A DNA stretch of 64,000 nucleotides from an uncultured Alphaproteobacteria bacterium (GTDB taxonomy: Bacteria; Pseudomonadota; Alphaproteobacteria; Rs-D84), in the NCBI GenBank assembly GCA_944393245.1, contig CALXZM010000003.1:14151-78150 (forward strand). The letters run 5' to 3'. A program made the translations under genes and the position numbers. Position 1 is the stretch's first letter. Every line of letters begins with the position of its first letter. Shown in pieces: positions 36,885-44,218 of the stretch. A model generated the notes under the pieces. The model was not told where the DNA came from. It was given only the letters and a program-made list of their open reading frames with translations, and made no database searches.

Positions 36885-38684
36885 ATGAAGCAGCAGAATA
36901 TCAGAAACTTTGCAATCGTTGCGCATATTGACCACGGAAAATCAACCCTGTCGGACAGGTTGATTGAATATACCGGCGGTTTGCAATCGCGCGAAATGAA
37001 GGCACAGGTTCTGGATTCTATGGATATTGAACGTGAACGCGGAATCACGATTAAGGCGCAAACCGTTCGTTTGAACTATACCGCCAAAGATGGCCAGGTT
37101 TATCAATTGAATTTAATGGATACGCCGGGGCACGTTGACTTTTCATATGAAGTGTCACGGTCGCTGGCCGCGTGCGAAGGTGCGCTGATTTTGGTTGATG
37201 CAACCCAGGGGGTTCAGGCACAGACATTGGCAAATGCTTATCTGGCGTTGGATAATGATTTGGAAATGTTGCCTGTGCTGAACAAAATTGATTTGCCGTC
37301 CAGTGATGTTGATGGAACGCGTGCACAAATTGCGGATGTTATCGGGCTGGATGCGGGGGATGCGTTGTGTGTGTCCGGCAAAACCGGTGCCGGTGTCCCA
37401 GAATTATTGGAAGAAATTGTTCAGCGTTTACCCGCACCGCGTGGAAATGAAAATGCGCCAGCGCGCGCGTTGTTGGTGGATTCTTGGTATGATTCGTATC
37501 TGGGGGTTGTGGTATTGGTGCGCGTGGTTGATGGACGATTGACGCGTGGCCAGAAAATCAGATTTATGGCAACTGGTGCAGAATATTTAATTGAAAAAAT
37601 TGGATATTTTACACCAAAAATGGTTGATGTCGATTCGTTGGAAACTGGTGAAATCGGATTTATTATCACAGGTATGAAAACCATTCATGATTGCAAGGTT
37701 GGTGATACAATCGTTGATGCGCGCAATGGTGTGAACTGTGAACCGTTACCGGGGTTTAAGCCGTCTGTGCCGGTGGTGTTTGCGTCTTTTTTCCCAGTAG
37801 AGTCTGATGATTATCCAGCGTTACGTGACGGGGCTGAAAAGTTGGCGTTGAATGATGCGTCATTTGTGTTTACGGTGGAAAAATCGTCGGCGTTGGGATT
37901 TGGATTGCGATGCGGTTTTTTGGGACTGCTGCATATGGAAATTATCAGTGAACGGTTGCGTCGCGAATTCAATTTAAATCTGATAAATACTGTACCCAGC
38001 GTATTGTACAAAGTGTATTTGCGTGACGGTTCTGTGATTGATTTGGAAAATCCGGCTGATATGCCCGATCCAACACGAATTGCATCGATAGAAGAACCAT
38101 GGGTTCGGGCGACAATTATGATGCCTGATAAATACATGGGGGGCATTATGTCGCTGTGTTCGGAACGGCGCGGGGTTCAGGAAAATATTTCATATGTCGG
38201 AAATCGTGCGGTACTGGTGTATCAATTGCCGTTGGCGGAAATAGTGTTTGATTTTTATGATCGTGTAAAATCGCTGTCGTCGGGGTATGCGTCGTTTGAC
38301 TATGTGGTGCAGGGATATCGTCCGTCTGATTTGGTAAAGGTTTCCATATTGGTGAACGATGAAAATGTGGAACCGTTGTCGTTTATGTGTCATCGCAGTT
38401 TTGCTGAAAAACGTGGACGTCAGATTGTTGAACGGTTAAAGGATTTAATCCCACGACATCAATTTAAAATTCCATTACAGGCCGCAATCGGGGGCAAAAT
38501 TATCGCGCGTGAAACAATTGCTGCATATCGCAAGGATGTTACCGCAAAATGCTATGGCGGGGACATTACACGTAAAAGAAAGTTATTAGAAAAGCAAAAA
38601 GAAGGAAAGAAAAGAATGCGTACCTTTGGCAATGTAGAAATTCCGCAATCGGCATTTATCAATGCGTTAAAGGTTGGAAATTAA
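36885..38684 (+). CDS. lepA: Translation elongation factor 4 (LepA)
   Basis: N-terminal G domain [29 protein letters not shown]. LepA-specific C-terminal domain. 599 aa. Confidence 0.9.
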
Positions 38685-38728: not shown

Positions 38729-39106
38729 ATGTCAGTATGGACATATATAACCAAAACACCAAAGCATATAATTCGTGCCGATTGGGATGAATATAAGTAT
38801 TTGGGTAAATGTGTGAATAGTGCAAGAAAGAAATGCGATATTGCACGCGCTGGTTTAAACCAGGGGAATAATGGATGCGTGTATGTGCGCTTTTATGATG
38901 TACCGGATTTTGGACGCGATACTGATGGTGGCAGACGGGCTGAACGTGAAACATGCGATAATTTTCAATACTCGGTTCCGTGCCGGAATAAAGATTGCCC
39001 TTACTATGAAAAAAATGTTGAATATTTCAGTGCAATGCATTTGCACAGGGCATTGGCAAAACAACGCAAAATATTCTGGGTACAGAAATTTGCAAATTGC
39101 AGATAA
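38729..39106 (+). CDS. Small Cys-rich protein, paralog A (unknown; mobile-element-associated)
   Basis: 125 aa with 7 Cys including CRNKDC. Basic C-terminus. Shares motifs (W.DE.K...C....R..L; C-x4-C; YF.A....K....FW) with the next ORF. Confidence 0.45.
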   Translation: MSVWTYITKTPKHIIRADWDEYKYLGKCVNSARKKCDIARAGLNQGNNGCVYVRFYDVPDFGRDTDGGRRAERETCDNFQYSVPCRNKDCPYYEKNVEYFSAMHLHRALAKQRKIFWVQKFANCR

Positions 39107-39118
39107 ACGGGGGCCATT

Positions 39119-39493
39119 ATGGTGTGTGCTGTAAAAGAGTGGCGCGATTTAAAACAAAAATGTGATGAAGCGTATAAAAAAGTCGATGCGTGTCGTGATG
39201 CGTTAAAGGGCAGATTTGACAAGCGTTTGTTTTCACCAGAAGCATGTTTTGCATGTATAAAAGTGGCTGTGGATGTTACAGAAACCAAAGATAAAAATTG
39301 GTTCGTTGTTAATTCTGATGTTTCGTTTTGCCCCAAATTTGTTCCTGAAAATTATGACGCAAAATGCACAAATAACGAATGTATGTTTCAACAACGCAAT
39401 CATGCTTATTTTGATGCGCTGAAAAAATATAACAATTTAATTAAGCAGAAAAATACTTTTTGGCGCGATAAATTACGTGTCAGAAAAAAATAA
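39119..39493 (+). CDS. Small Cys-rich protein, paralog B (unknown; mobile-element-associated)
   Basis: 124 aa with 8 Cys (CFAC, CTNNEC). Basic C-terminal tail RDKLRVRKK. 12-bp gap after paralog A. Confidence 0.45.
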   Translation: MVCAVKEWRDLKQKCDEAYKKVDACRDALKGRFDKRLFSPEACFACIKVAVDVTETKDKNWFVVNSDVSFCPKFVPENYDAKCTNNECMFQQRNHAYFDALKKYNNLIKQKNTFWRDKLRVRKK

Positions 39494-39513
39494 AATACAA
39501 TGGGGGACGGGAT

Positions 39514-40512
39514 ATGGCGCATCAATTTTTCTTTAATCCGTTCATATTGGATAATCTGCCTGCGCCGTCCGCCGGGTTTGATGTTGTCCAGGATTTGTCT
39601 GAACCGCGTTTGCGCATGTATGTTACCAGTCGCGGGGTAAAAACTTTTTTCGTGCGCAAACGTGTTCATGGACGTGATAAAAGAATAATTATTGGTAATT
39701 ATCCAGATGTGGATATAGAACAGGCGCGTGGTGCCGTCCCAGGTGTGTTGGCAACCGCCATGGAAAAACCACATGTCCACAGAAAAAAAATAACACTGAA
39801 AAAATTCATGGATTTATATCTGGAAAAACGGGTGCGTCGCAACAGTTATTCGCGATATAAATTGGAACGTGCGATAAAACATCATTTGGGGCCGTTAATG
39901 GATAAAAATATTTCTGATATAACGACCGATGATGTCGCAAATGTAATTGATAATATTGGTGGACGTGCGATTGCTGCGCGTATGCAGGAATTTTTGCAAA
40001 GTGTTTTTAAGTATGCGATTGATTCTGGATATGCAAAACAAAATCCAGTTGCGGTATTACCAAAAATCCAACAAACACGTCGTGTGCGACCACTGAACCG
40101 TGCCGGTTTTCACAGATTGTTGGATGCGATTAATCGTGAACCTGATTTAAATTTGCGTGCGGCGTTTTTAATGTTGGTTTATGCGTTTGCACCAAAAAGC
40201 CAGGTTTTTTCCATGCAGTGGTCTGATTTGGATTTTAATCATGATACATGGGGCGACAGACCCTTGTCTGATATGGCAATTGTTTTGTTACAGGATTTGC
40301 CCCAGGATGGAATATGGGTTTTCCCGGGGCGGGGACGTGGGCATTTGACTGATCCGCGTGTGGCATGGCGACGCGTGGCGAAAAATGCAGGAATTCCAAA
40401 TTTGACCATGGATGATGTGCATAAATTCTTGGTACGACAATTGACTTGGACGTCTGATCGTGAAGATTTTAGGGCCAATATGAATGCGTTGTTGGCTGAT
40501 GTTATGGCGTAA
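39514..40512 (+). pseudogene. Degenerate tyrosine-recombinase (P4-type integrase-like) gene; catalytic residues apparently lost
   Basis: The N-terminal arm-binding-like region (RLRMYVTSRGVKTFFVRKRV) and the integrase SAM-like/core blocks (FMDLYLEKRV...; MQWSDLDF) are recognisable. The box I Arg is replaced (APKSQVF instead of LRRGEL), the box II HxxR is degenerate, and there is no C-terminal Tyr. No downstream continuation in other frames. Confidence 0.5.
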
Positions 40513-40648
40513 GTGCGGTGTTAAACCAACAATATCAATTTTTGTTATCATTTGTTATAATTCCTTGACACCAGGGTTAGAAAATGATAGTTTTAAGTAA
40601 TGACGCCCGAAAGTGGGCCACAAATTTAACTGAAACAAAGGATAAAAA

Positions 40649-40885
40649 ATGACAACTTTTGAAAAAGTAAAAAAAATCGTGTGCGAAAAATTGGGCGTAC
40701 CAGAAGCCAAGGTTAAAGAAGATGCTTCATTTGTAAATGATTTGGGCGCTGATTCTTTGGACGTTGTTGAATTCGTTATGGCTGTTGAACAGGAATTCGG
40801 CATCGAAATCCCAGATGACCAGGCGACAAAATTGTCGACCGTTGGTGAAGCCGTCAAATATATTGACGAACACACTAAAAAATAA
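40649..40885 (+). CDS. acpP: Acyl carrier protein
   Basis: 78 aa with LGADSLD phosphopantetheine-attachment motif. Confidence 0.92.
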
Positions 40886-41022: not shown

Positions 41023-42276
41023 ATGAAAAGAGTTGTTATTACCGGTATGGGGATTGTTTCACCGGTTGGAACAGGAATTGAATACGCATGGAAAAATATT
41101 TTAAATGGCGTTTCCGGTGTGCGTAAAATCGATACGTTCGATGCATCTGATTTGACTTCACAGATTGCAGGGTTGCCAATTATTGGGACTGAACCAGGGC
41201 AATATAATCCTGATTCTGTTGTTGATGCACGTGAACAACGCAAAATGGATAAATCTATTGTATATGGCGTTGTTGCCGCGGATGAAGCAATTCGTGATGC
41301 CGGGCTGATTGAATATGACGGTGATAAAACACGTATCGGTGTTTCAATTGGCGCAGGTATTGGCGGATTGAATACCATTTATGATAACTGTGTGGAATTG
41401 TATGCAAATGGGCCACGCCATATCAGTCCGTTTTTTATTCCAAAGGTTATTATTAACATGACTGCGGGACATGTTTCAATCAGATATGGATTAAAAGGAC
41501 CGAATTTGTCCGTCGTTACAGCGTGCGCGTCGGCGGCACATTCAATTGGCGAAGCGGTACGTTTGATTCAGCATGGTGATGCAGATATTATGGTTGCCGG
41601 CGGGGCCGAGGGCGCAGTCGGTAAAATTGGTGTTGCAGGATTCTGTGCGATGAAGGCTTTGTCCACACGCAATGACGCGCCTGAAAAAGCATCACGCCCA
41701 TGGGACAAGGAACGTGATGGATTTGTCATGGCCGAAGGTGCCGGTATTTTGGTACTGGAAGAATATGAACACGCCGTTGCACGTGGTGCAAAAATTTATG
41801 CAGAGGTTGCAGGATATGGTCTGTCGGGTGATGCGTATCATATTACCGCCCCAGCCCCAGGTGGCGAAGGTGGCATGCGTGCAATGCAGGCCGCGTTAAA
41901 TGATGCCGGTATGCAACCGGGTGATGTTGATTATATTAATGCGCATGGTACATCAACGGGATTGGGTGATTTGGGCGAATTAAATGCCGTTAAAACCCTG
42001 TTCGCGGGTACAGATGTTTGCATGTCTTCGACCAAATCCATGACGGGACATTTGTTGGGTGCCGCGGGTGCCGTTGAATCAATATTCTGTGTTTTGGCGA
42101 TTCGTGACGGTATTGTTCCGCCAACCATCAATTTGGAAAATCCAGAAGATGAAGTCGGTGATTTCAATTTGGTTCCAAATGTTGCACAACAGCGTCCAGT
42201 TAATGTCGCGTTGAGTAACTCTTTTGGATTCGGTGGCACAAATGCCAGTTTGGTAATCAAACGATTCGAAAAGTAA
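41023..42276 (+). CDS. fabF: 3-oxoacyl-[ACP] synthase II
   Basis: 417 aa. Active-site Cys in VVTACASAAHSIGEA, catalytic His blocks (INAHGTST, GHLLGAAG), C-terminal NSFGFGGTNASLV. Confidence 0.9.
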   Translation: MKRVVITGMGIVSPVGTGIEYAWKNILNGVSGVRKIDTFDASDLTSQIAGLPIIGTEPGQYNPDSVVDAREQRKMDKSIVYGVVAADEAIRDAGLIEYDGDKTRIGVSIGAGIGGLNTIYDNCVELYANGPRHISPFFIPKVIINMTAGHVSIRYGLKGPNLSVVTACASAAHSIGEAVRLIQHGDADIMVAGGAEGAVGKIGVAGFCAMKALSTRNDAPEKASRPWDKERDGFVMAEGAGILVLEEYEHAVARGAKIYAEVAGYGLSGDAYHITAPAPGGEGGMRAMQAALNDAGMQPGDVDYINAHGTSTGLGDLGELNAVKTLFAGTDVCMSSTKSMTGHLLGAAGAVESIFCVLAIRDGIVPPTINLENPEDEVGDFNLVPNVAQQRPVNVALSNSFGFGGTNASLVIKRFEK

Positions 42277-42282
42277 TAAAAA

Positions 42283-42310
42283 AACGGGGCGTTGCCCCGT
42301 TTTTTATTTT
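42283..42310. terminator. Bidirectional intrinsic terminator (AACGGGGC-GTT-GCCCCGTT) between fabF and the acyl-CoA synthetase gene
   Basis: A6 upstream and T6 downstream of a GC-rich stem. The same stem motif recurs at 19953 and 46362. Confidence 0.7.
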
Positions 42311-43992
42311 TGTTTTTCTTCGTCTTTGCCCAATCCAATAACGTTTTTGACGGGGTCTATGATAGTATCCTTGGCACTGTCCAGTGTGCGGATTAATGCG
42401 CGACGGATTTTGCCAGATATTGTCATCGGCAGACTGTCGACGAATTCAATTACGCGCGGGTATTTATATGATGCCGTGCGTGCGCGAACGTGGTCCTGTA
42501 ATTGACGGATTAAAACGTCGGTGCCCTGAAAGTATTTGTTCAGAACAATTGTTGCCTTGACCGCCATGCCACGTGTCGGGTCTGGAATTCCAGTGACGGC
42601 AACTTCACGTACAGCGGGATGTTCCAACAGGACGCTTTCAACCTCAAACGGGCTGACGCGATATCCTGATGTTTTTATTAAATCGTCATTGCGGCCGACA
42701 AACCAATAATATCCATCGGCATCACGGTATGCCACGTCACCAGTATGATAATAACCATCGCGGAATACCTTGGACGTTAATTTGTCGTTTTTATGATAAC
42801 CCTGGAACAGGCCAACCGGATGACCGTTTTTTAACGAAACGCATATTTCACCAACTGTGCCGGTCGGAACAGGGCGACCACCTTCGTCCAGTAACTGAAC
42901 ATCCCAACCGGCCGCAGGCATGCCCATGCTGCCTGGTTTGGGTTCTATCCATTGGTTGGTAAACATCATCAGGCATGTTTCTGTTTGGCCGAAACCTTCG
43001 TGTAATTTTATGCCTGTCGATTTTTGAAAACGTTCAAAAACCTCTGGATTTAATGCTTCGCCGGCAACGTCGGCCTTGGCCAGGGCTGATAAATCATATT
43101 TGCTGAAATCGGCATGTATTAACATTTTGTAAACTGTTGGGGGCGCGCAAAATGATGTTATGTGATGTGTTGCCATGGCACTTAACAAATCGTGGGCAGT
43201 GGCGATGCCGGAAAAATCAAATACGAAAACCGTTGCGCCAGCCAACCATTGGCCATACATTTTTCCCCATGAACATTTTGCCCAGCCAGATTCAGATAAT
43301 GTAAAGTGTATATCACCATCGTGCAGACGTTGCCAAAAGACGGCTGTATTTATATGCCCCAATGGATATGTAAAATTATGCGCAACCATTTTTGGCATGG
43401 CGGTTGTGCCACTGGTGAAATATATTACCATCGTATCTGTGTTTTCATTTGGAACGCGTTCCAATGTTGTTGGCATTGTGTTAATGGATTCAGCAATTGC
43501 GTCATTGAATATTAACGGAATGTCCTTGTTTGTGATTGCCTTTTTAATTTCATCAATTATGTGACCGTCATCAAATGCAATAACGGCCTTGGATTCTGCC
43601 TGTTCAATGCGGTATTCGATATCTTCGGCCTTTAATTGATTAGTTGACGGAATGGGAATCACACCGATTTTATGCATTGCCAACATTAAAATCCAATATT
43701 CCCAACGACGGCGCATAAACAGTAATACCGTGTCACCACGTGTCAAGCCGCGCGATAACAAAAAGTTTGCAACTGCATTTGACATACGTGATAAGTCCCG
43801 GAATGTAAATTTCTTTGTTTCGCCCGAATCGTTTGTCCACAGCAATGCAATTGCGTCGGGGGTTTCCTGGGCCAATACATCAATTACATCATATGCAAAA
43901 TTAAAGTGGTCCGGAACAATCGGTGCACCATTTTTAATATAATCATCATAATTTTCAAATTTTTCCTGTTTCAAAAATTTAAGTGCAAACAT
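42304..43992 (-). CDS. AMP-dependent synthetase/ligase (acyl-CoA synthetase family)
   Basis: AMP-binding signature YFTSGTTAMPKMV, and the TGD...GR..D..K C-terminal motif (YHTGDVAYRDADGYYWFVGRNDDLIKTSGYRVSP). 562 aa. Confidence 0.75.
   Translation of the reverse strand: MFALKFLKQEKFENYDDYIKNGAPIVPDHFNFAYDVIDVLAQETPDAIALLWTNDSGETKKFTFRDLSRMSNAVANFLLSRGLTRGDTVLLFMRRRWEYWILMLAMHKIGVIPIPSTNQLKAEDIEYRIEQAESKAVIAFDDGHIIDEIKKAITNKDIPLIFNDAIAESINTMPTTLERVPNENTDTMVIYFTSGTTAMPKMVAHNFTYPLGHINTAVFWQRLHDGDIHFTLSESGWAKCSWGKMYGQWLAGATVFVFDFSGIATAHDLLSAMATHHITSFCAPPTVYKMLIHADFSKYDLSALAKADVAGEALNPEVFERFQKSTGIKLHEGFGQTETCLMMFTNQWIEPKPGSMGMPAAGWDVQLLDEGGRPVPTGTVGEICVSLKNGHPVGLFQGYHKNDKLTSKVFRDGYYHTGDVAYRDADGYYWFVGRNDDLIKTSGYRVSPFEVESVLLEHPAVREVAVTGIPDPTRGMAVKATIVLNKYFQGTDVLIRQLQDHVRARTASYKYPRVIEFVDSLPMTISGKIRRALIRTLDSAKDTIIDPVKNVIGLGKDEEKQK

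Positions 43993-44141: not shown

Positions 44142-44218
<77 letters not shown>

Follow-up and report, generated by a model that had tools for sequence, protein, structure and literature searches.

The closest described relatives of the protein discussed here are the P4-like or CP4-type tyrosine integrases (HPI integrase arm domain; 3jtz, 3rmp), and the best functional analogy is offered by TnsF of the Tn7-like element Tn6022, a tyrosine recombinase that has lost its activity and serves to select targets by their sequence (Faure et al. 2023, PMC10293859). Here we describe intL, a gene between lepA and acpP in a 64,000-nucleotide stretch of contig CALXZM010000003.1 from an uncultured alphaproteobacterium of the Rs-D84 lineage (hereafter the window, meaning the whole stretch), together with two genes immediately upstream of it, s1 and s2, which encode small Cys-rich (SCR) proteins. 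Like TnsF, which has been kept for DNA recognition and bending, intL is a bacterial tyrosine-recombinase derivative without catalysis. TnsF has N-terminal zinc fingers and tandem core-binding (CB) domains, lies in a transposon with TnsABC and TniQ and targets comM, whereas intL has a P4-type arm domain, is host chromosomal and has no transposon genes nearby; the sequences of the two are unrelated beyond the superfamily. The same principle of exaptation is reportedly at work in the ALOG and Crypton-derived genes, in which DNA-binding domains of tyrosine recombinases have been domesticated as transcription regulators, but these cases are eukaryotic and involve the N-terminal domain only, whereas intL keeps three domains. 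IntL is an ancient, catalytically dead integrase derivative that holds a fixed position and is under purifying selection in a lineage with reduced genomes. As a whole, the locus is quite probably best explained by a dead, domesticated integrase acting as a DNA-binding factor, accompanied by a variable family of SCR accessory proteins.

The intL protein falls approximately into an arm-type DNA-binding domain (residues 1-85), a core-binding or SAM-like domain (90-185) and a degenerate domain with the catalytic fold (195-332). In Pfam, it matches the P4-like Arm-DNA-bind_3 domain (PF13356, DUF4102; 28.9 bits) followed by Phage_int_M (PF22022; 37.9 bits), both above the 27-bit cut-off, and Phage_int_SAM_3 is matched as well. 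The XerD-type models of NCBIfam match only the N-terminal half, far below threshold. An AlphaFold2 (AF2) model built with alignment A1 is confident, with a predicted local distance difference test (pLDDT) score of 90.4, and its best Foldseek match in the PDB is full-length lambda Int (1z1b, E 2e-9). Further matches are to Tn1549 Int, XerD and XerA and, for the N-terminus, to the P4-like arm domains 3jtz and 3rmp. The core-binding and catalytic-domain fold of tyrosine recombinases is therefore retained in the model, and intL resembles the P4-like integrases in arm domain, core-binding domain and overall fold. Over residues 4-306, its closest P4-like sequence relatives share about 30-36% identity with it. 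A preliminary description of the locus, made from the DNA sequence, had already recognized the open reading frame (ORF) as a P4-like integrase derivative with arm and core fold, in agreement with the Pfam and Foldseek results.

The catalytic residues were read from alignment A1, which includes the closest active P4-like integrases, and from an alignment with lambda Int. Pro takes the place of the box I Arg (YAFAPKS in intL, YTGARRS in active P4-like integrases), and a 10-residue deletion has removed the β-hairpin with the catalytic Lys. At the HxLRR position, where active relatives have HDLRR, intL has MDDVHK, and a 24-residue deletion has removed the LGH...IYAR segment together with the second His and the Tyr nucleophile. 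None of the catalytic set of tyrosine recombinases (Arg-I, Lys-β, HxxR, His/Trp-III and Tyr) is thus left. Consistently, Pfam gives no match of intL to the catalytic domain PF00589, which scores 78-91 bits in the closest long relatives and is unmatched in the short members of the family. Since the R-K-H-R-H-Y residues are absent, intL must be inactive as a recombinase, which upholds the earlier conclusion drawn from the missing box I Arg, HxxR and Tyr; and because the residues that define the catalytic integrase family were tested and are lacking, intL stands outside that family in the functional sense. There is next to no chance that the loss is an artefact of a frameshift, an assembly error or a mis-set ORF behind which an intact recombinase is encoded. 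The identical intL ORF occurs on 7 independent contigs, hundreds of independent assemblies lead to a product of 332-333 residues, the lesions are substitutions and in-frame deletions common to all family members, and no alternative frame in 40200-40650 provides HxxR with a Tyr helix, nor LGH...Y downstream.

A search of 5.8 billion protein clusters (E <= 0.001) returned 1071 matches to intL. The best 120 are 76-99% identical to it, and 119 of these have 332-334 residues, all falling within 332-350. An exhaustive search of 50%-identity representatives for distant relatives added six further full-length clusters with 327-353 residues and 38-49% identity (E 1e-98 to 1e-61). A gap in E-value, from 1e-61 to 1e-34, divides this family from ordinary integrases, which have roughly 380-440 residues and ~30% identity. 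All short members of the family, down to 38% identity, carry the same substitutions and the same two deletions, and the long relatives match PF00589; loss of the active site was therefore a single, ancient event, after which the protein was retained. We found no description of the family in the literature.

In a genome scan in which each GTDB species was represented by a single genome, 275 matching stretches were confirmed and 80 loci returned; loci are referred to below, where needed, by L numbers. The 80 are named as Candidatus Enterousia or as gut alphaproteobacterial metagenome-assembled genomes (MAGs), one of them a closed MAG chromosome of 958,618 bp. Enterousia belongs to the order Rs-D84 and has genomes under about 1 Mb (PMC12306168). 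The gene order rbfA...lepA-[0-5 small ORFs]-intL-acpP-fabF is found in 80/80 species loci, and relatives at 49%, 44% and 38% identity keep the order lepA-intL-acpP-fabF(-mltG). Only one copy of intL is present in the window, as in each of 99 loci. Pairwise Nei-Gojobori estimates of the ratio of nonsynonymous to synonymous substitution rates (dN/dS) are 0.06-0.10 for intL, compared to 0.04-0.15 for rbfA, ~0.02 for lepA and ~0.03 for fabF. In contrast to the P4-like integrases, intL does not lie beside a tRNA att site, is not on a mobile element and is inherited vertically. Only short repeats at chance level were found in 36.5-44.5 kb, with no att-like repeat flanking the block and none matching the tRNA-Pro 3' end; the absence of such an att-like repeat had been correctly noted before. 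A pattern scan of IMG/VR viral contigs found no relative of intL. The fixed length, lesions and synteny, the low dN/dS and the lack of att repeats and of viral copies together argue that intL has been exapted.

These results turn the earlier reading of the locus around. The preliminary description saw a decayed mobile element with a maintained cargo. Spelled out, this would be the remnant of an island or prophage between lepA and acpP, with an integrase gene on its way to becoming a pseudogene and the Cys-rich pair as retained cargo. It is true that intL clearly stems from the integrase of a mobile element and that all its catalytic residues are gone, and the GC content dips slightly, to 0.35, over s2. 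The length and lesions of intL are nevertheless constant to 38% identity and its dN/dS is 0.06-0.10; every species locus examined has it at this one site, so that comparison with the 80 loci and three distant relatives gives no sign of an insertion polymorphism. The supposed cargo, on the other hand, is absent in outgroups and has been lost at least five times, while intL has never been lost. A relic of this kind is very improbable: intL is what is maintained, and the SCR genes are what varies. Other element types were also tried and rejected. An integron was rejected since the integrase is dead, the small ORFs all belong to one family and are co-oriented with intL, and their spacing of 12-20 bp provides no room for attC sites. 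The TnsA/B/C and TniQ genes of a Tn7-like element are missing at the intL locus, and PADLOC defence models give no match for s1, s2 or intL at E <= 0.01. By these tests, intL belongs neither to a mobile element or integron nor to a Tn7-like transposon or known defence system.

What a dead integrase may be kept for is suggested by the parts that are conserved. Conservation among 96 orthologs is highest in the arm domain of intL, where 34% of the columns are at least 95% conserved, compared to 10% in the core-binding domain and 14% in the C-terminal domain. As cutting and joining are lost, the three-domain fold is kept and the arm domain is the most conserved, intL is most likely a non-catalytic DNA binder. 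One could also imagine that intL is the non-catalytic partner or regulator of an active Xer or integrase protein, or a dominant-negative immunity protein that blocks P4-like integration at arm or att sites. Retention of the three-domain architecture, including the conserved arm domain and the scaffold of the catalytic domain, would suit such roles, and genomes below 1 Mb are probably under pressure against mobile DNA (PMC12306168). However, neither a second recombinase nor transposon genes are found in the window or within the 12-kb flanks of 99 loci, and PADLOC finds no defence family. The C-terminal segment of lambda Int mediates contacts between protomers in tetramers, and in intL this segment is deleted along with the Tyr segment. 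We consider a partner or decoy role unlikely. IntL descends from a P4-type (Arm-DNA-bind_3) tyrosine integrase that lost its box I Arg, Lys hairpin, HxxR and His/Tyr segment, with two deletions among the changes, and that then became a vertically inherited, single-copy chromosomal gene of Candidatus Enterousia/Rs-D84 at lepA-X-acpP-fabF, under strong purifying selection. Its product is predicted to bind DNA sequence-specifically, bending or bridging it, and may act as a regulator or an architectural factor.

The SCR proteins behave differently. BLASTP identifies s1 and s2 as paralogs (E = 8e-08 over 41 C-terminal residues), and they fall in one hidden Markov model (HMM) family, both with a pI of 9.3 and basic C-termini; Cx4C is present in both and CxxC in s2. 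The earlier account of two Cys-rich paralogs with such clusters and basic C-termini is thus confirmed. An iterative HMM seeded with s1 and s2 places 141 of the 148 ORFs in the lepA-intL gaps in one family, with the consensus Y..KTP...I..D..EY..L ... C ... C..F.....C....CP....N..Y......Y......K..FW..KF...K, four invariant Cys (C50, C76, C85 and C90 in s1) and a median pI of 9.2. In alignment A3, s2 lacks the N-terminal Y..KTP motif and retains the 4-Cys core and the FW..K tail. The HMM has 166 matches in the lepA-intL gap and 0 elsewhere in the 64-kb window and all locus flanks. The array has the same orientation and operon-like spacing in all loci, and the gap ranges from 22 bp without an ORF to 2.3 kb with five ORFs. 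Where SCR genes are missing, lepA and intL are 22-79 bp apart in Enterousia loci and down to 4 bp apart in the outgroup. The gap is free of SCR ORFs in six Enterousia species (L036, L053, L073, L074, L085 and L091). Mapped on a tree of lepA, intL and fabF, the copy number shows expansions to 2-4 copies, at least five independent losses and no copy in the outgroup; this distribution suggests that the crown group of Enterousia started out with one copy.

When the same genome pairs are compared, dN is mostly 5-11 times as high for the SCR genes as for intL, and the gene-wide dN/dS of SCR is 0.2-0.6 in most pairs. In L046 and L048, for example, the intL proteins are 89% identical and the SCR proteins only 30%. 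A word-index search of the 5.8 billion clusters returned only 1-2 near-identical homologs for s1 and s2 (2 for s1), because the family diverges too fast. SCR is a fast-evolving, dispensable family found only at the lepA-intL gap within the searched sequence; as the supposedly maintained part of the locus, with its 0-5 copies, it is in fact the unstable one. Whether the family has anything to do with intL can be viewed in two ways. The gap may simply be a permissive spot for a tandemly duplicating, fast-evolving family, e.g. of effectors or conflict genes, that is functionally unrelated to its neighbor. The occurrence of intL without SCR genes in outgroups and in the six Enterousia species and the order-of-magnitude difference in evolutionary rate speak for this, whereas the restriction of the family to this one gap, in constant orientation and with operon-like spacing, is compatible with either view. 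We regard an unrelated neighborhood as a real possibility that falls short of being probable. In the reading of SCR as an accessory family of intL, the proteins would be dispensable, rapidly diversifying factors that bind nucleic acid, acyl carrier protein (ACP) or intL.

A lead towards the second of these partners comes from ACP-like domains in the array. ORFs in the gap that do not belong to the SCR family but are ACP-like occur free in L028 and L034 and doubled in L016, and an ACP-like domain is fused N-terminally to the SCR domain in L002, L007, L017 and L024. The resident AcpP is 30-43% identical to these domains, in which the DSL serine motif is preserved, and the association, whether as accompanying ORFs or as fusions, occurs in two clades. 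Since ACP-like paralogs lie in the SCR array or are fused to its members, the SCR proteins may be linked in function to acyl carrier protein.

For the first partner, nucleic acid, the lead is a profile match. Pfam, NCBIfam, PHROGs and PADLOC give no consistent family for the SCR proteins, either singly or with 102 members. The AF2 model of s1, from a 5-sequence alignment, has low confidence (pLDDT 62) and consists of a helix, a β-hairpin and a long helix. A profile of 102 SCR members searched against PDB sequences gives as its top four matches phage gp32 in every case, at the zinc subdomain (E-values of 0.0037 for two entries of RB69 gp32, and 0.029 and 0.042 for T4 gp32, 1gpc and 8gme, respectively). 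Alignment with hhalign to a nine-sequence gp32 alignment gives a probability of 87.5% over 48 columns, with a score of 42.6 compared to 13.6 for a reversed SCR profile. SCR residues C76, C85 and C90 align with gp32 C77, C87 and C90 and are followed by an N..Y...(Y/F)W helix. The C-terminal half of SCR weakly resembles the gp32 zinc subdomain (PDB 1gpc, 2a1k) in three Cys and the helix after them, whereas at ~125 residues SCR is too short for the full gp32 core, and the first ligand is a Cys in place of gp32 His64. On the strength of this profile match, taken as a lead only, the SCR proteins may contain a gp32-like zinc knuckle and would then probably bind nucleic acid; the mechanism we propose has them bind zinc through a putative C-x8-C-x4-C knuckle followed by a helix. 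The preliminary description, which assigned s1 and s2 to no known family and thought them possibly zinc- or nucleic-acid-binding, agrees with the library scans, and the weak gp32 match is the sole lead in that direction.

A candidate target for intL lies just downstream of its gene. The spacer between intL and acpP is near-invariant in 82/82 loci, at about 2 bits per position (window 40530-40648 and the spacers of L002-L093). The consensus of the acpP promoter and leader reads TTGTTAT-N3-TTGTTATAAT-N3-4-TTGACA-N17-(TG)ATAGTTT, followed by a hairpin GCCC-N6-GGGC in the 5' untranslated region, in which 3/4 pairs show compensatory changes. Tandem TTGTTAT repeats are located at 40542-40558, where TGTTATAAT forms an extended -10-like element. 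The repeats are spaced by one helical turn and bear a likeness to an array of arm-type sites, and we propose the invariant tandem TTGTTAT in the acpP promoter, purely as a hypothesis from sequence, as a candidate binding site of intL. An Rfam scan of 36-44.5 kb found only tRNA-Pro above threshold and left the acpP module unmatched.

Several observations weigh against this picture. The relative P0133 (38% identity, 353 residues) occurs in a different context, between genes for an acyl-ACP thioesterase and recR. The TTGTTAT repeat overlaps the extended -10-like element, a similar tandem motif is found at a second intergenic region in about nine loci, and TTGTTAT-N3-TTGTTAT is not enriched in the window, which has one exact site and, with 2 mismatches, 5 sites compared to 2.2 expected. 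In L090, where an unrelated gene separates intL from acpP, the module remains with acpP. Because TGTTATAAT is -10-like, the motif is not enriched and the module stays with acpP in L090, we assign the spacer to acpP as its promoter and leader, and conservation of the repeat may simply be that of the acpP promoter. Finally, the gp32 similarity is marginal, as 3/150 column shuffles reach the real hhalign score, and Foldseek with the low-confidence SCR model gave no gp32 match; against PDB and BFVD it returned nothing below E 0.1.

The features of the locus are collected in Table 1. The genes lepA, s1, s2 and intL follow each other closely, at distances of 44, 12 and 20 bp, and a purine-rich ribosome-binding site precedes each of s1, s2 and intL. 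No terminator-like site was found between the lepA stop and the intL start, and lepA is probably co-transcribed with the genes downstream, as judged from this layout.

Table 1. Coordinates of features at the intL locus (window positions, unless a locus number is given).
Feature	Position	Strand	Description
lepA (EF4)	36885-38684	+	Conserved upstream neighbor
s1	38729-39106	+	125 residues, from the ORF listing; SCR family member with basic C-terminal helix
s2	39119-39493	+	124 residues; second SCR paralog
intL	39514-40512	+	332 residues; catalytically dead, C-terminally trimmed P4-type tyrosine integrase derivative
intL-acpP intergenic module	40513-40648	+	Assigned to acpP; repeats, promoter-like elements, hairpin
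acpP (acyl carrier protein)	40649-40885	+	Conserved downstream neighbor
fabF	41023-42276		Downstream of acpP
Bidirectional terminator	42279-42305		12-bp stem
AMP-binding (acyl-activating) enzyme gene	42304-43992	-	
tRNA-Pro(CGG)	44142-44218		
ACP-like paralogs in SCR array	L002:5346-5975, L007:6444-7055, L016:3858-4487, L028:5276-5578, L034:5265-5570		
TTGTTATAAT-TTGTTAT second-site occurrences	L045:12665, L051:12271, L080:10392, L082:10596, L088:11146 and others	-	

The neighbors of the locus are rbfA, lepA, acpP, fabF, the AMP-binding enzyme gene and mltG. In L001, L002 and L007 the AMP-binding enzyme gene is on the + strand, as opposed to the - strand in the window, and tRNA-Pro(CGG) is also placed differently from locus to locus, as if part of the region downstream of fabF had been inverted or rearranged locally. 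The gene that intervenes between intL and acpP in L090 (L090:7019-8506, - strand) encodes a repeat-rich protein of 495 residues with a signal-peptide-like N-terminus, and L090 is the sole break of intL-acpP adjacency among the 80 loci. P0133 is the most divergent intL relative (L095:2580-5033, GCA_964514455.1); it is located beside recR-ksgA and again has an ACP-related neighbor. In L080, the second tandem motif lies between mltG and a porin-like gene, directly after a hairpin terminator and antisense to mltG; this second site may represent a shared promoter type or a small-RNA promoter. L040 (CAZJGX010000008.1) is labelled as an uncultured Muribaculaceae bacterium, yet carries an alphaproteobacterial lepA-SCR-intL-acpP-fabF locus, which is likely due to binning contamination or mislabelling.

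In a more far-reaching version, intL would be an essential DNA-binding regulator or architectural protein across the whole order, maybe controlling the lipid genes acpP-fabF via arm-type TTGTTAT repeats, and the neighboring gp32-like zinc-finger and ACP-fusion proteins would undergo rapid diversification to modulate intL or ACP in host-symbiont or mobile-element conflict; we offer this as a speculation that is rather doubtful. To our knowledge, the well-documented host-domesticated tyrosine recombinases are mostly eukaryotic, such as ALOG and the Crypton-derived genes. IntL is a clean bacterial case, in which a full-length integrase scaffold without an active site has been kept through the history of an order-level lineage. 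It also calls for caution in annotation, as one pipeline names it "integrase", and in the use of predictors of islands and prophages that rely on integrase markers. The SCR family, which was found at this locus only, offers a small-scale natural experiment in how rapidly a gene family can turn over, and its ACP-like fusions provide a lead to its function. In genomes of less than 1 Mb, genes without use would be expected to disappear; that intL has been kept makes it a strong candidate for a new class of DNA-binding factors derived from integrases.

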